From contig NC_086107.1 of NCBI RefSeq assembly GCF_963921235.1, forward strand, positions 93,374,001 to 93,438,000: a stretch of DNA of 64,000 nt, read 5' to 3'. Below are positions 1,546 through 34,885 of this stretch, one piece after another. Numbering within the stretch: the first letter of the stretch is position 1; each line of letters opens with the position of its first letter. Made by a program: the position numbers and the translations under genes. A model generated the notes under the pieces. It was not told the origin of the DNA. It searched no databases and saw only the letters and a program-made list of their open reading frames with translations. The stretch is from Mobula hypostoma. Taxonomy: Eukaryota.

Positions 1546-1744
1546 ACCTGACTTGACTTCCCAAACCAATATGAAAGCAAAAAGATTCTTTGTTACATTA
1601 TTGGTTGAATTCTTCACTCTGAGGGAAGTAAATATTTTTATCCCAAACTCCAATCTTTCAACAATATATCTGAAACCATTCGAAGAAAATGAACAACAGC
1701 ATTCAACATTTAGCTTGTTCTCTCCAGTGGAATATTTGTATTTC

Positions 1745-2425
1745 AATGCCACAGACAGTGGAGGCCAAGTGATTGGGTATATTTAAAGCGGAGGTGGATA
1801 TGTTCTTGATTGGTAAGGGTAACAAAGATTACAGGGAGAAGGCAGGATAACGGGGTTGAGAAGGGAACCCTACCAAGGATTGTGAGGACTGCTGAGATGA
1901 TTATCAGCGTCTCTCTTCCACCCATTCGAGATATTTATCAGGAGTATAACAATGCATACGCAGGGCCCATAGCATAGTCAATGATCCCTCCTATCTGTCC
2001 AGCAATTTCTTTGTCCTCCTACCATGAGGCAGAAGGTATCATAGCATTAGGACAAGGACTGCTGGGATTGGAAACAGCTTCCTCCTCCAGGCTATAAGAC
2101 TACTGAACTCCCTGCCAAGGCCCAGGACTCAGCATGTATGAAGCGCCAATACAGTTATAAAGTTTATTTTTTGACTTGTGCCATAAGTTCATCTTATTAT
2201 TTGTTAATTTACTTGCGGTAATGTTACTTTATGTGCTGTGTGTGAGTTACATGTACTGTGTTGTGCATCTTGGTCCAGAGGAATGTTGTTTCATTTGACG
2301 GTATACTGTTGAATTTACACTTTAACTTGAAATTGAAAATAAATTAGCCACGCTGGAATGGTGGAGCAGACGTGATTGGCCAAATGGCCTTATTCTGCTT
2401 CACTGTGTTATGGTTTTATGGTTCT
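1745..2425 (+). mobile_element. CR1 3' fragment interrupted by a Rex1 3' fragment (about 1866-2332)
   Basis: CR1 3' sequence (GTGGAGGCCAAG...GGGGTTGAGAAGG) stops near 1865 and resumes at 2333 (AAAATAAATTAGCC...TTATGG tail); the insert has the Rex1 3' motif AACAGCTTCCTCCTCCAGGC. Confidence 0.65.
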
Positions 2426-2581
2426 TGTAATTATTTTTATTTCCTGTGGACTCCAGGGCAACCCTGAACAATCTCCTGCAGAGCAATAGGGTAACGGAGA
2501 CCTCTTCCTTGAGATTCCACCCTTTCTAACTGGCTTCTCATTTGCAGCGCTTTGGAAGAATGAATGGGGATAAAGAACTTG

Positions 2582-3096
2582 TACAAGTAGTGGCCACTTT
2601 ATTAGGTACACCTGTTGGATAATGCAAATATCTCATCAACCAATTATGTGGCAGCAACTCAATGCATAAAAGCATGTCAACATGGTCAAGATGTTCAGAC
2701 CAAACGTCAGAATGGGTAAGCATTGTGATCTAAGTACCTTTGACTGTGGAATGGTTGTTGGTGCCAGATGGGGTGGTTTGAGTATCTCAGAAACTGCTGA
2801 TCTCCTGAGATTTTCACAAACAACAGTCTCTAAAGTTTACAGAGGCTGGTTCAAAGAACAAAAATAAAATCCAGTGAGTGGCAGTTCTGTGGGTGAAAAT
2901 GCCTGATTAATGAGAATGACCACACTGGCTGAAGCTGACAGGAAGACAACAGTAACTTAAATAACCATGTGCTGCAACAGTGATGTGTAGAAGAGCATCT
3001 CTGAACACACAACAGATCAAGCTACAGCAGCAGAAGACCACAGCCATTACACTCTATTATGTACAGGAGGTATCTAATAAAATGGCCACTGAGTGT
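2582..3096 (+). mobile_element. Internally deleted Tc1-family DNA transposon
   Basis: TIRs AGTGGCCACTTTATTAGGTAC / ATCTAATAAAATGGCCACTGAGTG; encodes a Tc1 N-terminal HTH remnant MGKHCDLSTFDCGMVVGARWGGLSISETADLLRFSQTTVSKVYR. Confidence 0.85.
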
Positions 3097-3369
3097 GCAC
3101 TCATCAGTCATTTAAGGCTTCTTCCCACAGAAGGTGGTGAATCTTTGGAACTCTATAGCCCAGATCACTGTGGGAGCAATTGACTGGTGAATTAGATTGT
3201 GGGGAAGTTCAGGGAATCGAATGCTATATCACACTGGCCAAAAGAGATGAGTCCTGAGCATATCAGCCATGATCATGTTGAATGGTCTACTCCTGGTCCT
3301 ACTTTCTCATGTTTACAAAATCCCAAAGAATCTTTTTAGCTCATGAAGCAATCTTATACGTAGTATCTC

Positions 3370-3765
3370 TGGGCCGGCATTTGGGACCGTCCAGAGGAAT
3401 GGGCTGGGGTACATTTCATTGAAACCTACTGGACACTGACATGCCTGGATATAGTGGTCATGGAGAGGATATCTCCATCAGTTCTCAATAGCGGGATCAA
3501 AATAAAGGGATGTCAAAAGATAAAGAGGAATTTCTTCAGCCAGAGCATGATGAACCTGTGGAATTTGTTTCCACATTGGGGAGTGGAGATCATGCTTTTA
3601 GGTGCATTTATTCAGGGATTGATTGGCTCCTGATTGGTAAGGGGGTTAAGGATTACAAGGAGAAGATAGGAGAAAAAGGTTGAGAAACAAAAAGAATCAT
3701 TGGTGAATGGTGGAGCAGACGGAATGGGCTGAGTGGCCTAATTCTGCTGCCATATCTTATGGAAA
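3370..3765 (+). mobile_element. Degraded CR1 3' fragment
   Basis: Matches other CR1 3' ends in the window (GAGGAATTTCTTCAGCCAGAG...GGCCTAATTCTGCT...TCTTATG). Confidence 0.7.
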
Positions 3766-5029: not shown

Positions 5030-6270
5030 GAGCAAAAATAGCGAAGTAGTGTTCATGGGTTCATTGACCGTTCAGAAATCTGATGGCGGAGGACAAGTAG
5101 CTCGACCTGAAAGAATTGTACTCCTGTACCTCCTCCCTGAGGGTAGTAATGAGAAGAGGGCATATCGTGGGTAGTGGGGGATGCTATCTTTTCGAGGTAT
5201 CACCCCAAACAGTCCTTCCAGGTGAGGCAACACTTCACCAGCGGATCTGCTGGGGTCGTCTATTGTGTTCGGTGCTCCCGAAGCCGCCTCTTCTGCATTG
5301 GTGAGACCCGTTGTTAATTGGGAGACCACTTCGTCGAGCACCTCTGCACCATTCACCAAAAGTGGAACTTCTCGGTGGCCAAACGTGTTAATTCCCATGC
5401 TGAAATGTCGGAACATGACCTTCTCTTGTGCCAAGATGAGGCCACCCTCAGGGTGGAGGAGCAACACCTTATATTCTGTTCAGGTAGCCTCCAACCTGAT
5501 GGCATGAATATTGATTTCTTCTTCCAGTTAAAAAAAAATTCCCTCCCTCTCCCCTCTTCTATTCCCCACTCTGGTCTCTTACCTCTCCTTACCTACCTGT
5601 CTCCTCCCCCTGGGTCCTCTCCTTCCCTTTCCCCCATGGTTGACTCTCCTCTCCCATCAGATTCCTTCCTCTCCAGCCTTTTACCTTTCCTACCAGCCTG
5701 GCTTTACCTATCTCCTTCTAGATATCCTCCTTCCCCTTCCCCCAGCTTTTTACTCTGGCATCTTCCCCCCCTTTTGTCTCCAGTCCTGAAGAAGGGTCTC
5801 TGCCTGAAATGTCGACTGTTTATTCATTTCCATAGATTCTGCCTGGCCTGCTGATCTCCTCCAGCACTTTGCTTGTTCTGCCTTTTGAAGATGCCCTTGA
5901 TGGTGGAGATTCTAGTGCCCATGATGGATTGGCTGAATTTACCACCCTCTGCAGCTTTTTCCAGTCCTGTGCTGTACCAGATGGTGGAGCGAGCAGTGGG
6001 ATCGCTCTCCATGGTGCATCTGTAGAAATTTGCTAGATTCTTTGGTGTCATTCCAAGGCTCCTCAAACTCCTAATGAAATACAGCTGCTGGCATGCCTCC
6101 TTCCTAATTGCATCACTATATTGGGCTCAGGATAGATTTTCAGCCACGATCTATCCTGAACTTGAACTCTATTCTTCACCCAGGAACTTGAAACTGCTGT
6201 TCCTTCAATGAGCACCTGTGTCTATTCCCTTAACCACCCCTTCCTGAAGTCCACAATCAATTCTTTCCTC
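5030..6270 (-). mobile_element. Rex1/Babar LINE 3' fragment, split by a Penelope insertion
   Basis: Minus ORFs LRSLGMTPKNLANFYRCTMES and YALFSLLPSGRRYRS. The uninterrupted junction GAAGCATC|GCCTTTTGAAGATG is visible in the copy near 18945. Confidence 0.8.
5201..5879 (+). mobile_element. Penelope-like element 3' fragment (GIY-YIG C-terminus plus terminal repeat with hammerhead motif at 5781-5818)
   Basis: GDHFVEHL...DEATLRVEEQHLIF..GSLQPDGMNIDF is homologous to the C-terminus of ORF 31816-33177. Confidence 0.85.
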
Positions 6271-7984: not shown

Positions 7985-8210
7985 TCAACAACACACAAGG
8001 TACTGGAGGAACTCAGTGGGTCAGGCAGCATCTGCGGAGAGAAATGTTCATATGATGTTTCACACTGAGACCCTTAATCAGTTCAGATGAAGGGTCTCAG
8101 CCCGAAACATTAACTGTCTGTTTCCTTCCACAGATGCTGCCTGATCTTCTGAGTTCTTCCAGTATCTTCTCTTTTCCAGATTCTGGCATATGCAGTCTCT
8201 TGTGTCTCCA
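7985..8210. mobile_element. Head-to-head pair of Penelope terminal-repeat fragments
   Basis: Minus copy 7985-8081 and plus copy 8082-8210 are inverted about CCCTTAATCAG|TTCAGATGAAGGG. Confidence 0.75.
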
Positions 8211-10509: not shown

Positions 10510-10740
10510 TACCAGCTCTTGGCTCCATCCCTCCCCCTCCTGTCTTCTCCTATCATTTTGGATCTCCCCCTCCCCCTCCCACTTTCAAATCCCTTACTGT
10601 CTCTTCTTTCAGTTAGTCCTGACGAAGGGTCTCGGCCTGAAACGTCGACTGTACCTCTTCCTATAGATGCTGTCTGGTCTGCTGCGTTCACCAGCATTCT
10701 GTGTGTGTTGTTTGAAATTCCAGCATCTCCTCGTGTTTGT
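10510..10740 (+). mobile_element. Penelope terminal-repeat fragment with intact hammerhead core (10615-10651)
   Basis: Near-identical to 33365-33590; contains AGTCCTGACGAAGGGTCTCGGCCTGAAACGTCGACTG. Confidence 0.9.
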
Positions 10741-13719: not shown

Positions 13720-14770
13720 GTATCTTCAAATGTTAATTTATTATCAAAGCATACAACTCTGCAATTCTTCTTCTCCAGATAGCCATGAAACTCAATAAGA
13801 ACGGCAGCATGATCATCAACCCCCAAATCCCTCCTCCCCACACAAAAAAATGGACAAAAACGGAACAGGCACAATGATCCTCAAATCCCCCTCCTCCACA
13901 CACAAAAAACACTGAGAGAGATCAGGTGAAAAACAAAGAATATAAAATATTGTAAATCTATAGTCCAAGTGCATATCCAAAACACAGAAAACCCGGGTAA
14001 CACTCTCCAGGCACAACGATCAAAAGACAGTCTCCCCTCTCCGTAGCAGAGCGATCCCACTAGCGATCAAAAGGCTGTCTCCCCTCTCCGTAGCAGAGCG
14101 ATCCCACTAGCGATCAACAGGCAGTCTCCCCTCTCCGTAGCAGAGCGATCCCACTAGCGATCAAAAGGCAGTCTCCCCTTTCCGTAGCAGAGCGATCCCA
14201 CTAGTGATCGACAGGCAGTCTCCCCTCTCCGTAGCAGAGCGATCTCACTTGTGATCAAAAGGCAGTCTCCCCTCTCCGTAGCAGAGCGATCCCACTAGCG
14301 ATCAAAAGGCAGTCTCCCCTTTCCGTAGCAGAGCGATCCCACTAGTGATCGACAGGCAGTCTCCCCTCTCCGTAGCAGAGCGATCTCACTTGTGATCAAA
14401 AGGCAGTCTCCCCTCTCCGTAGCAGAGCGATCTCACTATTGATCAAAAGGCAGTCTCCGCTCTCCGTAGCAGAGCAATCCCACTAGCGATCAAAAGGCAG
14501 ACAGCCAGCACACACCTTCTGCATTCACCTCAATGTTTCAATCTCCCTCATTGATTTAATCAGCGAACAATGGAAGTTTTAATCAGCGAAATGGAGTCGA
14601 ACATCGGATCACCCCCGTCCCACAGCTTCGCCACAAGTTTCACGCACACCTCCTCTGCCTCCCGGAATCCTCACCGAGACTGCAGAGCACTGAAACACCC
14701 AAATGATCTCCAAATTGCAAATCACAGGCTCCAACAGTTCCAGAATCACACTTAAGATGAAAAACCAACG
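13720..14770 (-). mobile_element. Non-autonomous Rex1-tailed element carrying an internal minisatellite
   Basis: Reverse-complement tail (TTTATTATCAAAGCATACAACTCTG) at 13735-13765 resembles other Rex1-type tails in the window. Confidence 0.45.
14017..14500. repeat. 47-bp minisatellite, 10 full units plus a partial
   Basis: Unit CGATCAAAAGGCAGTCTCCCCTCTCCGTAGCAGAGCGATCCCACTAG starting at 14017, 14064, 14111 ... 14487. Confidence 0.97.
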
Positions 14771-14862
14771 TCAATGTGCATGTCTGTGTGTGTGCGTACA
14801 CATGGGTATTGTGTGCATCTGTATAAGATTGGTTTGAGACAGCACAATATCCTGTAGTCATT

Positions 14863-15339
14863 GACACAAGAGATTCTGCAGATGCTGGAAATTTTGAGCA
14901 GCACACACAAAATGCTGGAGGTACTCAATAGGTCAGGCAGCAAGTGTGGAGGGAAATGGACAGTCAATGTTTTGACCAAGACCCTTCATCTCGACTCTAA
15001 AGGTAGAGGACAGAAGCCTGAATAAAAGAAACCAGAGATTCTGCAGATGCTGGAAATCCACAACAACGCACACAAAATGCTGGAGAAACTCAGCAGGTCA
15101 GGTTGCATCAATGGAGATGAATAAACCGTCAATCTTTTGGGCTGAGACCCTTCATCGGGACTGGAATGGAAGAGGGCACAAGTCAGAATAAAAGACACCA
15201 GGGATTCTGAAAATGCCGGAATTCTTGAGACACACACACACACACACACACAGTGGTGGAGGAACTCAGCAGGTCAGGCAGCACTTATGGATGGAAAAGA
15301 ACAGTCAATGTTTCGGGCCGAGATCTTTTATCAGGACTG
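14863..15339 (-). mobile_element. Tandem trimer of ~170-bp Penelope terminal-repeat units, each with a degenerate hammerhead motif
   Basis: Motifs at 14961-14996, 15126-15163 and 15302-15339, each followed on minus by the PLE tail. Confidence 0.8.
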
Positions 15340-15779
15340 CCGCCATACCTCCAGGATGGGGCAAAGTGCTGGCACACAGTACGAGTGACCACAGCCACCT
15401 CAGAACCTTAGACCACCATTTTACGGAGCTCTGAGGAGAAAATTAAAAGATAAAAACCAGGAAGAACAACATTTGTACAGGTTATTATTCCCATGGATAT
15501 TCCTGCTTCTAAATCTACACTGGGGAACAGAGAACTATTTACAAAGATATACAAGCAATACACTGAAAGACCTGATATTCCCACCCCACTTACTGAGTAC
15601 ACAGAGAGTGAAAGCCTGATCCATTGAGAAATGAAATGCTATTTAAACTTTGTTAGCTTGTACGTTCCTGCCTTGAATTGAAATCTGTTTTTGCCTCCTA
15701 GTAGCCAAAGCCCAAAACTTCCTTCTTTCTCAATTATGGGCACTTCTTTCTCTGATTTCTTTCACCAACTATTCGTGAC

Positions 15780-21510: not shown

Positions 21511-22464
21511 GCTACTCACCAGTCCTTTGGGACCTCACCTGTAGCTAGAGAGGACATGAAGATATTAGTCAAGACCCCAACAATTGCTTCTCTTGACTCT
21601 CCATAACCTGGGGTATATCCCGTCAGGTCCTGAGGACTTATCCACCTTAATGCTCTTAAGGTGACCCGAAACTACCTCCTCCTTTACCTCAAAGTGCCCC
21701 AGCAAGTCAATAGCTCAGCACTGATCTCCCTATCCTCCATATCCTTTCCTTTGGTAAATACTGCTGTTAGTACTCATTAAGGACCTTATCCACATCTTCT
21801 GTATCCAAGCACATGTTCCCCTCTTTATCCTCGTGTGGTCCTACCCTCTGGCTGCTCTTGACTTTCCTAAATTCTTCTTGAGTTCTCTTCTGGCTTCTTT
21901 ATAATCCTCAAGAGTTCTGTTTGATTTTAGTTCCCTAAACTTTACGCACCTTTCCTTTTTCTTCTTGAGTAAATTCATCACCTCCCTCAATATCCAAGGT
22001 TTTCTTATCTTACCATCCTTGTCCTTCCTTCTGACAGGAACATACCTGTCCTGTACAGTTTGTCTTTAAACACCCTCCACATGCCAGACGTGGACTTGCC
22101 CAAAAACAGCTGTTCCCAATTAACACGCCTTAGTTCCAGTCAAGTATTCTCATAATTTGCCCTGTTCCAATTTAATACTCTCCCGCAAGATCCATACTCA
22201 TCCTTATCTATAGCTATCTTAAAACTTAATGAGCTGTGGTCACTGTCCCCTCACTGCTCACCCACTAAAAGTTTGATCATCTGGCCAGGCTCGTTACCCT
22301 CCACCAGCTCCAGGACAGTCCCTCCTCTTGTTGGACTGTCTGCTGTACATATTGATCTAAGAGGCCCTCCTGGATGCTCCTAACAAATCTAAACCTCTTT
22401 CACGCTGCCAGCCCCAGTTTATATTTGGGAAGGTGAAATCCCCCATGATGACAACCCTATTGTT

Positions 22465-30094: not shown

Positions 30095-30765
30095 GCTTTT
30101 TGAGGTATTGATCAGACCACGTATGGAGTATTATGAAGCGACTTGGGCACCTTATCTAAAAAAGGATGTGCTGGCATTGGAGAGGGTCCATGGGTGCTTC
30201 ACAAGAATGATCTCAGGAATGAAATGATTAATATCCTGACGAAGGGTCTTGGCCCAAAACGTCGACTGTACCTCTTCCTATAGATGCTGCCTGGCCTGCT
30301 GTGTTCACCAGCATTTTTCGTGTGTGTTGCTTGATTAATGTACGAGAATCTTTTGATTGTTCTGGGCTTAAAGTTTAGAAGAATGAGGGGGGAATATCAT
30401 TGAAACCTATTGAATATTGCAAGGGCTGGATAGAGTGGACGTAAAGAGGATGTTTCCAATAGTGGGAGAGTCTAGGATCAGAAGGCACAGCCTCAGAATA
30501 GAAGGATGCCCCTTTAGAATAGAGATGAGGAGAAATTCCTTTCGCCAAAGGGTGGTGAATCCATGGAATTCATTGCCACAGATGGTTTTGGAGGCCAAGT
30601 CGTTGGGTATATTTAAAGCAGAGGTTTATAGTTCTTGATTAGTAAGGGTCAAAGCTTATAGGGAGAAGGCAGAAGCATGGGGTTGAGAGAGATAATAAAT
30701 CAGCCATGATGGAATACCAGAAAGCACTCAATGGGTCAAATGGCCTAATTCTGCTCCTGTGTCGT
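30095..30765 (+). mobile_element. CR1 3' fragment
   Basis: GLDRVDVKRMFPIVGESRIRRHSLRIEG...QRVVNPWNSLP. Confidence 0.85.
30233..30331 (+). mobile_element. 99-bp Penelope terminal-repeat insertion with 8-bp TSD
   Basis: TGATTAAT at 30225-30232 and 30332-30339; the insert is the hammerhead motif plus tail. Confidence 0.9.
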
Positions 30766-31334
30766 ATACAAGAAGTCCATTCTAGAGATAGAATGTGTCT
30801 TTGAGCATGGTGGCTCATGTTCTGAAGCTTTTGTATCTTTGGCCTGACGAATGGATGTGGGGAAGAGAAGAAAGGAAAAAGCTTCAACAAGAGAAAATCT
30901 GCAGATGCTGGAAATCCAAGCCACACACAGAAGACGCTGGAGGAACTCAGCAGGCCAGGCTGCATCTATGGAAAAAGACTCCTGCCAAAGAGTCTCGGCC
31001 CAAAACGTCGAAAGAGAAAAACTTGCTTTTTTTAAATTGTATCTTTTGTGGCTTTGAAGCATCCTAAAGGGTTTTGGAACAATTGAATATTTTATTTTTT
31101 GTATTGCTGTGGAAATGCATTCAAATAACATCATCCTGCGCCTCCTAGTTGACCTGAATCAAAATCAGGTTTATTATTATTAGTGACATATATCATGAAG
31201 TTTGTTGTGCAGCAGCAACAGTGCAGAACAAGACATAAAAATATTACTCTAAGTTACAAGAAGAAATATATAGCAACACACATCAAAGTTGCTGGTGAAC
31301 GCAGCAGGCCAGGCAGCATCTATAGGAAGAGGCG

Positions 31335-31372
31335 CAGTCGACGTTTCAGGCCGAGACCCTTCGTCAGGACTA
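31335..31372 (-). ncRNA. Hammerhead ribozyme motif in the inverted pseudo-LTR
   Basis: CAGTCGACGTTTCAGGCCGAGACCCTTCGTCAGGACTA is the exact reverse complement of the 33470 motif. Confidence 0.78.
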
Positions 31373-31647
31373 ACTGAAGGAAGAGTGAGTAAGGGATTTG
31401 AAAGCTGGAGGGGGAGGAGGAGATGAAAAATGATAGGAGAAGACAGGAGGGGGAGGGATGGAGCCGAGAGCTGGACAGGTGATAGGCAGAAGGGGATACG
31501 AGAGGATCATGGGACAGGAGGTCCGGGAAGAAAGACGGGGGGGGGGTGACCCAGAGGATGGGCAAGAGGTATATTCAGAGGGACAGAGGGAGAAAAAGGA
31601 GAGTGAGAGAAAGAATGTGTGCATAAAAAGGAGTAACAGATGGGGGA

Positions 31648-33177
31648 CCTATTGTCTCAGCTTGCTCCTGCCCCACCGAACTCGTTTCTGCATACCTCGA
31701 CACTGTTTTATCACCCCTTGTTCAATCCCTTCCGACCTATGTTCGTGACACTTCTCACGCTCTTAAACTTTTCGATGATTTTAAGTTCCCTGGCCCCCAC
31801 CGCTTTATTTTCACCATGGATGTCCAGTCCCTATATACTTCCATCCCCCATCAGGAAGGTCTCAAAGCTCTACGCTTCTTTTTGGATTCCAGACCTAATC
31901 AGTTCCCCTCTACCACCACTCTGCTCCGTCTAGCAGAATTGGTCCTTACTCTTAATAATTTCTCCTTTTGCTCCTCCCATTTCCTCCAAACTAAAGGTGT
32001 AGCTATGGGCACCCGTATGGGTCCTAGCTATGCCTGCCTTTTTGTTGGGTTTGTGGAACAATCTATGTTCCATGCCTATTCTGGTATCTGTCCCCCACTT
32101 TTCCTTCACTACATCGACGACTACATTGGCGCTGCTTCCTGCACGCATGCAGAACTCGTTGACTTTATTAACTTTGCCTCCAACTTTCACCCTGCCCTCA
32201 AGTTTACCTGGTCCATTTCCGACACCTCCTTCCCCTTTCTAGATCTTTCTGTCTCTGTCTCTGGAGACAGCTTATCCACTGATGTCTACTATAAGCCTAC
32301 TGACTCTCACAGCTATCTGGACTATTCCTCTTCTCACCCTGTCTCTTGCAAAAACGCCATCCCCTTCTCGCAATTCCTCCGTCTCCGCCGCATCTGCTCT
32401 CAGGATGAGGCTTTTCATTCTAGGACGAGGGAGATGTCTTCATTTTTTAAAGAAAGGGGCTTCCCTTCCTCCACTATCAACTCTGCTCTTAAACGCATTT
32501 CCCCCATTTCACGTACATCTGCTCTCACTCCATCCTCCCACCACCCCACTAGGAATAGGGTTCCCCTGGTCCTCACCTACCACCCCACCAGCCTCCGGGT
32601 CCAACATATTATTCTCCGTAACTTCCGCCACCTCCAACGGGATCCCACCACTAAGCATATCTTTCCCTCCCCCCCTCTCTCTCCATTCCGCAGGGATCGC
32701 TCCCTACACAACTCCCTTGTCCATTCGTCCCCCCCATCCCTCCCCACTGATCTCCCTCCTGGCACTTATCTGTGTAAGCGGAACAAGTGCTACACATGCC
32801 CTTACACTTCCTCCCTTACCACCATTCAGGGCCCCAAACAGTCCTTCCAGGTGAGGCATCACTTCACCTGTGAGTCGACTGGGGTGATATACTGCGTCCG
32901 GTGCTCCCGATGTGGCCTTTTATATATTGGTGAGACCCGACGCAGACTGGGAGACCGCTTCGCTGAACATCTACGCTCTGTCCGCCAGAGAAAGCAGGAT
33001 CTCCCAGTGGCCACACATTTTAATTCCACATCCCATTCCCATTCTGACATGTCTATCCACGGCCTCCTCTACTGTAAAGATGAAGCCACACTCAGGTTGG
33101 AGGAACAACACCTTATATTCCGTATGGGTAGCCTCCAACCTGATGGCATGAACATTGACTTCTCTAACTTCCGCTAG
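31648..33177 (+). CDS. Penelope RT + GIY-YIG endonuclease (N-terminally truncated, frame open)
   Basis: The frame is open from PIVSACSCPTE (31648) through MDVQSLYTSIP, GVAMGTRMGPSYA, YIDD, then GVIYCVRCSRCGLLYIGETRRRLGDRFAEH, to the stop at 33177. Confidence 0.93.
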   Translation, partial: PIVSACSCPTELVSAYLDTVLSPLVQSLPTYVRDTSHALKLFDDFKFPGPHRFIFTMDVQSLYTSIPHQEGLKALRFFLDSRPNQFPSTTTLLRLAELVLTLNNFSFCSSHFLQTKGVAMGTRMGPSYACLFVGFVEQSMFHAYSGICPPLFLHYIDDYIGAASCTHAELVDFINFASNFHPALKFTWSISDTSFPFLDLSVSVSGDSLSTDVYYKPTDSHSYLDYSSSHPVSCKNAIPFSQFLRLRRICSQDEAFHSRTREMSSFFKERGFPSSTINSALKRISPISRTSALTPSSHHPTRNRVPLVLTYHPTSLRVQHIILRNFRHLQRDPTTKHIFPSPPLSPFRRDRSLHNSLVHSSPPSLPTDLPPGTYLCKRNKCYTCPYTSSLTTIQGPKQSFQVRHHFTCESTGVIYCVRCSRCGLLYIGETRRRLGDRFAEHLRSVRQRKQDLPVATHFNSTSHSHSDMSIHGLLYCKDEATLRLEEQHLIFRMGSLQPDGMNIDFSNFR

Positions 33178-33469
33178 GCCCCACCTCCCCCTCGTACCCC
33201 ATCTGTTACTCCTTTTTATGCACACATTCTTTCTCTCACTCTCCTTTTTCTCCCTCTGTCCCTCTGAATATACCTCTTGCCCATCCTCTGGGTCACCCCC
33301 CCCCCGTCTTTCTTCCCGGACCTCCTGTCCCATGATCCTCTCGTATCCCCTTCTGCCTATCACCTGTCCAGCTCTCGGCTCCATCCCTCCCCCTCCTGTC
33401 TTCTCCTATCATTTTGCATCTCCCCCTCCCCCTCCAGCTTTCAAATCCCTTACTCACTCTTCCTTTAGT

Positions 33470-33507
33470 TAGTCCTGACGAAGGGTCTCGGCCTGAAACG
33501 TCGACTG
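33470..33507 (+). ncRNA. Minimal type I hammerhead ribozyme motif
   Basis: Stem I AGUC/GACU; core CUGACGA; stem II AGG-GUCUCGG-CCU; GAAA; loopless palindromic stem III ACGU; GUC triplet. Confidence 0.8.
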
Positions 33508-34469
33508 CGCCTCTTCCTATAGATGCTGCCTGGCCTGCTGCGTTCACCAGCAACTTTGATGTGTGTTGCTTGAATTTCCAGCATCTGCAGAATTCCTGTT
33601 GTTTGAGAAGAAATATATAAACATGAATAGGTGGTGCTAATAAAGAGCAAAATAGTGACGTAGTGTTCGATGGTTCATGGACGATTCAGAAATCTGATCG
33701 TGGAGAGGAATTTGTCCCTGAAACATTGAGTGTGTGTCATCAGACTCCTGTACCCCCACCCTGACGGTAGCAATGAAAGACCTTCCTGAGGCATCCTCTT
33801 TTGAAGGAAAGCTTGTTCCAACCCCCAAAAAGTAGATAATGGGGATTGTTGGTTGGGCAGAGATATTTTGGGCATTAGTCTTACAAAGGCAGGAGAGCAA
33901 GTCATGGAGAGCACGTGCACTTCCCCTTTAAGCCCTCAGACTGCATTCCCTTCCCTTTAATTAATTGAATGAACACCTTTAGCTCTTCTAATTATCACCC
34001 TGTACGTGTAATGTTTGTTGGGAGAGAGCTCTGCCTGTGAAGAGCTTTCTTAAAAAAAAATTAAAACTGCTGATCCCACAGAATTAATTACGACTCAGAT
34101 CAAACTGTGACAAGAAAGGAGGATTTATTAAAAGTTAAAAGAACGCCAATTACTCTTCCTTTTGGATTTTTTTTTCCCGCAAGGCTTCAAACTCCAATTT
34201 ATAGCTGCCTCCCACTGCCCCTCCTCTTACTTTCTCCTCTGGATATCAGCTCAGCTTCAGTAAAAAGACACACAATAGAGGCAGAAATTGCCAAGAGATA
34301 TTCTTTAAGAAAGCAGCATGAGCAGGAACAGTGGAGTTCTAAATGTTTGAAGTGATTTTCCAATTGGAAAAATTTCATATATTCGGAACAAGGCTCCTGT
34401 GGGAGCTGGTTGCACAGAAGTGGTGAGTTTCAGTAAACAGTTCCTCTCCACCATCCACGCCATGCTTTC

Positions 34470-34885
34470 TTGGATGTGGGGTTAGACTACAAGGAGAGAC
34501 TGAGTCGCCTGGGACTGTACTCACTGGAATTCAGAAGGATGAGAGGAGATTGTATGGAAACATATAAAATTATGATAGAGGCAGGGAAGTTGTTTCCACT
34601 GGTAGGTGAGACTAGAAGTAGGAGACCCACGTTTCAGGATGGAAATGAGATGAGGAAGAACTGTTTTTCCCAGAGAGTGGTGAATCTGTGGAATTCTCTG
34701 CCCAGAGAAGCAGTTGAGGCTTCCTCACTAAATATATTTAAGATACAGTTAAGTAGGTTTTTACATAGTAAGGGAATTAAGGGTTATGGGGAAAAGGCAG
34801 GTAGATGGAGCTGAGTTTACGGACAGATCAGCCACGATCTTATCGAATGCTCGATGGGCCAGATGGCCTACACCTGCTCTTATAT
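34470..34885 (+). mobile_element. CR1 3' fragment
   Basis: LDYKERLSRLGLYSLEFRRMRGD...FSQRVVNLWNSLP. Confidence 0.85.

Follow-up and report, generated by a model that had tools for sequence, protein, structure and literature searches.

The stretch analysed here, 64,000 nucleotides of contig NC_086107.1 of Mobula hypostoma (hereafter the window), contains a 2,334-bp retroelement insertion at 31272-33605, in which an inverted tail is joined to a 5'-truncated unit (Table 1). Near its 3' end, 293 nt past the stop codon of the element's open reading frame (ORF), begins a 37-base motif whose quoted sequence was verified by direct reading of the window. With a probability of about 0.8, this motif is the minimal hammerhead ribozyme (min-HHR) module of the pseudo-long terminal repeat (pseudo-LTR) of an endonuclease-bearing Penelope-like element (PLE).

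The translation of the ORF matches PF00078 (reverse transcriptase, RT; E 5.8e-5) and then PF01541 (GIY-YIG; E 3.9e-4), both below the Pfam cut-offs, and a CX5CX2C linker (CKRNKCYTC) precedes the endonuclease. An RT followed by a C-terminal GIY-YIG domain in a single ORF is the defining order of endonuclease-bearing PLEs. The layout of the family also matches this group, with pseudo-LTRs built from partial tandems, an inverted 5'-truncated arm and a one-sided extension of 34 nt. The structural sections of Craig et al. (2021; PMC8557442) describe PLEs with an inverted 5'-truncated copy at the 5' side and a 30-40 bp 'tail' at one end.

When compared by blastn with a full-length unit, the inverted arm corresponds to unit positions 3137-3507 (window 31648-31277, 98.1% identity) and the direct arm to 1589-3547 (window 31646-33605, 98.9%); the two arms are 98.4% alike over 191 nt. 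The inverted arm and the copies at two full-length loci (L039 and L040) terminate at end site 1 (33569). The direct arm outruns the inverted one by 34-36 nt, and its extension runs into the 5' leader of full-length units. The same two 3' end classes (33569 versus 33605), 34-41 nt apart, were found at loci L001-L008. Because a perfect 13-bp duplication surrounds both arms, the opposed hammerheads at 31335-31371 (-) and 33471-33507 (+) arrived together, and the inverted tail and truncated unit represent a single insertion event.

Table 1. Features of the insertion and related copies in the window.
Feature	Position	Strand	Evidence
Minimal type I hammerhead motif	33471-33507	+	Direct sequence reading, 31-mer search, descriptor match, folds
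Left 13-bp target-site duplication, AGAAGAAATATAT	31259-31271	.	Direct reading, identical to 33606-33618
Inverted 5'-truncated copy of the element 3' end, ending at 3' end site 1	31272-31648	-	blastn
Inverted-arm hammerhead motif, identical to 33471-33507	31335-31371	-	Exact 31-mer 31337-31367, descriptor
516-aa open frame coding for the C-terminal half of the PLE protein; stop 33175-33177	31627-33177	+	Stop-to-stop ORF
Direct 5'-truncated PLE unit, 1,960 bp of a ~3,515-bp unit	31646-33605	+	blastn
3' untranslated pseudo-LTR part upstream of the hammerhead motif, poorly conserved between lineages	33178-33470	+	Older-copy alignment
Element 3' tail to end site 1; variable 11-nt linker 33508-33518, rest conserved	33508-33569	+	Older-copy alignment
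Extension to 3' end site 2, at one insertion end only	33570-33605	+	Unit 1-34 = 33572-33605, 100%
Right 13-bp target-site duplication	33606-33618	.	Direct reading, same as 31259-31271
Intact motif copy in a separate older tail fragment, TGTACC-type linker	10615-10651	+	31-mer, blastn, descriptor
Three head-to-tail ~170-nt units, each with a decayed hammerhead, tail and 25-nt linker, no ORF	14865-15340	-	blastn, alignment

Direct reading and the descriptor match bore out the claim of the original prediction that every conserved hammerhead core base is present. In the usual numbering scheme, as in Cervera and de la Pena (2014; PMC4209133), C3 U4 G5 A6 N7 G8 A9, G12 A13 A14, A15.1-U16.1 and H17 are all found, so that all eleven invariant core bases are in place. 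Helix I pairs AGUC (33471-33474) with GACU (33503-33506), as had been proposed and as recovered in the folds, with U33470-G33507 as a possible fifth, wobble pair; 88.3% of its cells are paired among 17 aligned copies. This helix of 4-5 bp closes the motif from both flanks, the hallmark of type I. The core segment C3-A9 (CUGACGA, 33475-33481, N7 = C) is followed by A33482 and then by GGGTCTCGGCCT at 33483-33494, in which 33483-33486 pairs with 33491-33494 around the loop CUCG (33487-33490). A helix II had been predicted with three pairs. The helix is there, but a form with four pairs (G-U, G-C, G-C, U-G) and A33482 unpaired between A9 and G10.1 is preferred, because it is slightly more stable (-2.5 versus -2.2 kcal/mol) and matches the published PLE form. 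GAAA follows at 33495-33498 (G12-A14 at 33495-33497). As had been noticed earlier, helix III lacks a loop and consists of the palindrome A15.1-C15.2-G16.2-U16.1 (ACGU, 33498-33501). C17 is at 33502, and the predicted cut lies between 33502 and 33503.

Within the window, further exact copies of a 31-mer of the motif lie at 10619-10649 (+) and 31337-31367 (-), and copies with three mismatches at 5786 and 30236; no match was found in 100 shuffles. The two exact matches are the identical cores previously placed at 10615 and 31335 (minus). A copy is likewise present, by blastn or by eye, at each of the sites listed as degenerate (5781, 8055/8083, 8348, 14961, 15126, 15302, 25980, 30234, 30980, 43279 and 50814), and blastn of the element tail against the window gave 14 matches. 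A full descriptor (helix I of 4 bp; CTGANGA; 0-1 extra nucleotide; helix II of at least 3 bp; GAAA; a 15.2/16.2 pair; U, then H) matched at four places (5786, 10619, 33475 and, on the minus strand, 31367) and in none of 200 dinucleotide-preserving shuffles.

Other elements in the window were also recorded. A remnant of another PLE lineage lies at 5203-5853 (+); its GIY-YIG-coding end has 74% DNA identity to the young unit, and in its hammerhead N7 is A, loop 2 contains U and 15.2-16.2 reads UG. Core boxes of the form CTGANGA...GAAA...UH that lack helices and are unrelated to the repeat occur at 21630, 30844 and 50966. The first of these, at 21630-21674 (+), is a chance CTGAGGA...GAAA match without helix I that encloses a perfect 8-bp palindrome, CACCTTAA...TTAAGGTG. 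Close to the insertion, the open frames 30414-30638 (+) and 34437-34814 (+) have a common ...RQRVVN.WNSLP... motif; they resemble C-terminal pieces of long interspersed element (CR1/L2-type) proteins, that is, other retroelement debris.

A six-frame ORF search of the M. hypostoma genome (3.48 Gb) returned 246,896 first-look candidates, of which 83 were scored. These 83 matches are 97-100% identical, with open frames of up to 1043-1092 aa, seven of them exactly 1043 aa. The 31-mer, with at most two mismatches, was found ~300 nt past the ORF in 30 of 30 ORF-selected loci (exact in 26). At L039 and L040 the motif stands on both sides of a 1043-aa frame, the two copies being 3513 and 3517 nt apart. 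L040 comprises one unit and the final 1,172 nt of a second, and L039 a tandem followed by an inverted fragment; the pseudo-LTR pairs of the full-length copies are 99.1-99.2% alike. This is the pseudo-LTR architecture of PLEs, and the motif thus occupies the terminal repeat of such an element, where the original prediction had placed it.

Genome-wide, the 31-mer has 103,657 matches with at most two mismatches, against 0 for a reversed control, and the exact 36-mer, which includes both helix I strands, occurs 32,886 times; the claim of a high-copy repeat carrying the ribozyme motif therefore holds. The 10.1-11.1 pair of helix II is G-U in all of these exact copies. A 35-mer pattern that requires C at 11.1 and allows G or A at 12 has 6,174 matches; the first 100 listed divide into 88 with G12 and 12 with A12 (base counts from the first 100 matches listed are hand tallies throughout), and ~5,400 copies with a G-C pair are estimated. 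Tens of thousands of copies retain all four CpG dinucleotides of the motif. The family is both very abundant and very young. The identity of the ORFs, the pseudo-LTR pairs and the arms of the window insertion, together with the surviving CpGs, is consistent with a recent burst. The long open frames and the perfect 13-bp duplication also bear out the earlier description of the element as young. An asymmetry between TG and CA at the core CpGs of the young lineage was considered as a further argument and dropped, given the few sites and possible founder effects.

Most copies are short. Seven of the first eight exact-match loci on contig 1 were examined (L003 was dropped, as it overlaps L002). Upstream of the motif, between 0 and 1,137 nt of the autonomous unit is present at these loci, four of which also have inverted arms. 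Of the first 100 copies listed, 28 stand head to head (minus, then plus), in 14 pairs whose members are separated by less than 200 nt and which turn round within the hammerhead motif or immediately upstream of it, as seen also at L001, L002 and window positions 8020-8160 and 30886-31011. Among the exact matches listed, there is a single same-strand pair within 1 kb (460 nt apart).

Alignment of eight older window copies with the copy at 33471-33507 identified the motif as the best-kept block of the repeat across older lineages. Mean identity is 0.79 in the motif, against 0.29 in the 60 nt upstream (33411-33470), 0.28 in the 11-nt linker, 0.63 in the tail and 0.55 in the extension, while N7 matches the reference copy in none of the eight. 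A genome pattern for an older lineage (U17, a different linker, CpG-type pairs free, other core bases fixed by the pattern) gave 2,395 matches; the constancy of the pattern-fixed bases rests on the window copies and the existence of these intact matches. In the first 100 of them listed, position N7 varies (54 U, 28 A, 14 C, 4 G), whereas G8 is retained in 95. The 11.1-G12 CpG reads CG in 26, TG in 35 and CA in 32, a symmetric decay from C11.1-G12. At 15.2-16.2, CG is the commonest state (37), followed by CA (33) and TG (21), a decay from the ACGU palindrome. The differences seen between lineages (C, U or A at N7; C or U at 11.1 opposite G10.1; C or U at 17; loop 2) all fall at positions that hammerheads tolerate.

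Logan contigs from four runs, each labelled with a different organism, were compared at 80% likeness, and contigs of all four labelled organisms cover 33462-33608. Contig matches begin at 33471 (X9, 11 records) or 33472 (X5, 7 records), with unlike sequence before, and break at 33507 (X5, 27 records; X9, 14 records), where another linker follows. Across 33467-33507, the only difference among the variants listed, beyond which there are at least 118 more, is 33494 T>C, at 35-70% of depth; it restores G10.1-C11.1. This falls short of proving the stretch invariant. Low or absent contig cover at 33210-33293 (X9, X16 and X17) was considered as a sign of divergence in the 3' untranslated part and rejected, an uncovered part being no evidence.

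Several results weigh against a working hammerhead at this site. Helix II is weak, with four pairs of which two are wobbles, and in the young lineage its 10.1-11.1 pair is G-U in place of the highly conserved G-C. Folded locally, the motif takes as its minimum-energy form a hairpin (5+4+4 bp, -11.7 kcal/mol) that combines helices I and II with a middle helix formed by G5-G8 and C15.2-C17; helices I and II alone give -6.8 kcal/mol in the nearest-neighbour model. For two copies, a double hammerhead with intermolecular helices I and III is calculated at -11.1 kcal/mol, compared with -23.4 kcal/mol for two monomer hairpins, which bury G5-G8, and -31.7 kcal/mol for a full duplex; the active fold is thus predicted to be thermodynamically disfavoured. 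The tail behind the motif is also kept (0.63), so the conservation is not confined to the motif, and part of it could serve recognition by the RT. A covariance-model search for hammerhead type I, proposed as a check, came back empty: Rfam (release 15) gave no match at gathering score across the window and none at E up to 10 on 33300-33700. Rfam hammerhead models expect a helix III hairpin. Covariation, another proposed check, was uninformative, because helices I and II hardly vary: pairing is kept in 91.4% of cells across 17 copies, and shuffles reach 90.5% (89 of 500 were as high).

Published activity data point in the same direction. In the portions of Cervera and de la Pena (PMC4209133) that deal with cleavage, min-HHRs are reported to cut poorly in vitro, even as dimers. 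According to the relevant sections of PMC11167929, PAc, the Poseidon PLE of Anolis carolinensis, has a hammerhead that depends on protein and without which insertion still proceeds in vitro, and no RNA-seq reads end at the cut site of this hammerhead. A disfavoured active fold, as modelled here, would fit both the low activity of min-HHRs and the protein dependence of the Anolis element.

The genomic 5' ends of the copies were also considered as a footprint of cleavage, since a cut RNA used as linear template should yield insertions with G1.1 as their first base. Only 15 genomic copies have all four bases before G1.1 unlike CGTC, against 6,073 in which CGTC is intact before the same 28-mer; this too counts against cleavage. 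Several of the 15 share the same four bases (e.g. ...TCCT or ...AAGA before GACTG) and resemble internal deletions. Such shared junctions have the look of recurrent events in which the interior of the hammerhead was deleted between short direct repeats. At a site taken for comparison, 33510, the count was 107, a figure inflated by linker variants of other lineages, and the claim is limited accordingly to the absence of a spike of copies at the predicted cut. None of the 61 copies in a local sample of 223,761 bases begins at G1.1. As almost no copies start there, integrated copies are not derived from linear RNA that starts at the cut. This result does not exclude cutting itself. Full-length insertions extend past the 5' hammerhead into a preceding partial unit, which fits either an uncut, more-than-unit RNA or a circular template, as proposed by Cervera and de la Pena (PMC4209133).

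These observations raise the alternative of a conserved pseudo-LTR element, RNA or DNA, whose hammerhead core is a relic and which has lost the ability to cut or, in this lineage, never had it. It might then act as a hairpin or protein-binding site in RT recognition, template switching or fold-back formation. The minimum-energy hairpin, the disfavoured dimer, the G10.1-U11.1 pair of the most abundant lineage, the conserved tail, the absence of copies starting at the cut and the head-to-head pairs that turn in or just upstream of the motif would all suit such an element. So would the in vitro insertion of the Anolis PLE without hammerhead activity (PMC11167929, sections as above) and the success of Naiad PLEs, which the portions of PMC8557442 that treat them describe as thriving without hammerheads. 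The alternative is nevertheless judged unlikely. The hairpin is no stabler than shuffled sequences (z -0.13; 89 of 200 shuffles fold as well), it does not form in the fold of a 149-nt context, and position 7, which it pairs, is the most variable of all. One double change, C7-G16.2 to U7-A16.2 (five cells, three of them from one tandem array), belongs to the hairpin helix and was examined as a possible compensation. It was rejected, because in the older-lineage genome sample A16.2 is equally frequent with U7 (19 of 54), A7 (9 of 26) and C7 (4 of 11), as CpG decay would produce. Furthermore, there is a sub-lineage with A7, a base unable to pair with G16.2; if a 7-16.2 pair were required this would be hard to explain, whereas the free N7 of a hammerhead accommodates it easily. 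The presence of all eleven invariant core bases and the restriction of the lineage differences seen to N7, 11.1, 17 and loop 2 argue in the same direction.

The array at 14865-15340 appears to be a retrozyme-like arrangement derived from an older lineage. Its three units have a mean column identity of 75% (MAFFT); Tandem Repeats Finder did not report the array on 14600-15700, although the units align by eye and in MAFFT. Together with the many very short copies, this array without an ORF could suggest that a short non-autonomous unit of hammerhead and tail, distinct from the PLE and either a non-LTR retrozyme or similar to a short interspersed element, accounts for the spread of most of the more than 100,000 copies. 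A preprint (Li et al. 2026, 10.64898/2026.07.22.740005) argues that animal retrozymes derive from PLE pseudo-LTRs. Such a route is very improbable for the bulk of this family. At all seven examined contig 1 loci the upstream sequence, where present, continues into the autonomous unit, and lengths of 0-1,137 nt with inverted arms are the spectrum of 5' truncation and fold-back of the PLE itself. In addition, the exact matches listed include only one same-strand pair within 1 kb, and the window array belongs to an older lineage. Finally, although bare core boxes are common, with three unrelated ones in the window, a chance resemblance in an unrelated repeat is scarcely credible, given that the full descriptor is absent from 200 shuffles, that the motif sits exactly at the known place of PLE hammerheads in both repeats, that the PLE-specific extra nucleotide and palindrome are present, and that the block is conserved across lineages and labelled organisms.

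If the motif is a min-HHR module, as preferred here, its mode of action can be outlined from published work on other PLEs. A single copy would be unable to close helix III, but two copies could do so through their ACGU palindromes and, with helix I strands exchanged between them, build a double hammerhead. The two could meet in trans, in a short tandem array or in a transcript longer than one unit. Each paired copy would then be cut after C17 (33502), probably slowly and with help from the element protein or a chaperone; cleavage of min-HHR dimers is attributed to Lunse et al. (2017), as cited in the portion of PMC6765202 that mentions it. Such cutting would process multimeric or read-through RNA, trimming or circularising the RNA of the element.

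The copy at 33471-33507 is itself most likely inert, within a dead-on-arrival insertion. This is suggested by the lack of an intact sense-strand partner nearby and by the antisense orientation of the partner in the same insertion. The nearest sense-strand copy (30236) has G12 changed to A, and an intact one is reached only at 10619, at a distance of 22.8 kb. If the entire insertion were transcribed, its two arms, the antisense partner included, could pair in a stem of ~370 bp that would bury the motif.

The changes at the level of lineages avoid the catalytic core, which argues that source copies need it, and integrated copies almost never begin at the predicted cut, which argues that cut linear RNA is not the usual template. 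A further proposal, distinctly doubtful at present, is that the strength of the ribozyme tunes the success of the PLE, with the hammerhead kept by selection on source copies. The lineage of the latest and largest burst has two changes that should weaken the hammerhead: U11.1 creates a G-U wobble at the metal-site pair, and C7 would allow G5-G8 to pair perfectly with C15.2-C17 in an inactive hairpin. If tuning were true, a weakened hammerhead would spare more RNA longer than one unit from cutting, which would then be available for insertion, and the same hairpin might be the turn-round point of the very common fold-back insertions. As hammerheads in PLE repeats have been known since 2014, the interest of one more family is modest. 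What a hammerhead does for a PLE is, however, a question that the literature has left open, and ~33,000 perfect and more than 100,000 near-perfect copies, with long open frames still present, provide a natural data set for it.

A full-text literature search for motif strings of 15 letters found no paper, and the two searchable supplement files of PMC4209133 contain no shark, Callorhinchus or helix II string. The family thus seems undescribed in the searchable literature, while its kind has been known since 2014. Compared with the Rfam type I hammerhead, the core and the topology of helices I and II are alike, and the helix III hairpin is absent here. In sequence, the CKRNKCYTC linker resembles the zinc-finger-like CX2-5CxxC linker between RT and endonuclease that PMC8557442 ascribes to the Neptune and Nematis clades and not to Penelope/Poseidon.

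Like PAc, the element is a vertebrate PLE with a pseudo-LTR hammerhead and has two adjacent 3' end classes, as if reverse transcription started at two internal sites. Cut ends are untraced in both, in RNA-seq for PAc and among genomic 5' ends here. The two differ in that the PAc ORF starts inside helix II, whereas the first AUG of the full-length loci described here lies 166 nt past C3 of the upstream (5') motif copy, and in the CX5CX2C linker that precedes the endonuclease. The array at 14865-15340 shares with the non-LTR retrozymes of animals, which are expressed as circular RNA (Cervera and de la Pena 2020, PMC7229834; Li et al. 2026), head-to-tail units of ~170 nt, a type I hammerhead and the lack of an ORF. 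Its hammerheads, however, are decayed, and the copy at 33471-33507 is single and lies in the remnant of an autonomous element.

The closest agreement is with the min-HHRs that the descriptive sections of PMC4209133 place in the pseudo-LTRs of metazoan PLEs and define by a short helix I (4-5 bp), a single nucleotide that separates A9 from G10.1, a palindrome at 15.2-16.2 and the lack of loop 3. The motif is similarly type I, with a full core, a helix I of 4-5 bp, an unpaired nucleotide before G10.1 and a loopless, palindromic 15.2-16.2. It stands in both repeats of an element with RT and GIY-YIG domains, and it has many dispersed single and inverted-pair copies. The differences are a helix II of only 4 bp, against the usual 6-8 bp, and the G-U at 10.1-11.1 of the dominant lineage, where U in place of C at 11.1 is the sole exception at the sequence level. 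The copies are nearly uniform, as reported for D. virilis and unlike the extreme variability of most metazoans. They are also about ten times as numerous as the PLE hammerheads of the coelacanth and Xenopus, whose 4,000-9,000 copies were called 'remarkable'.

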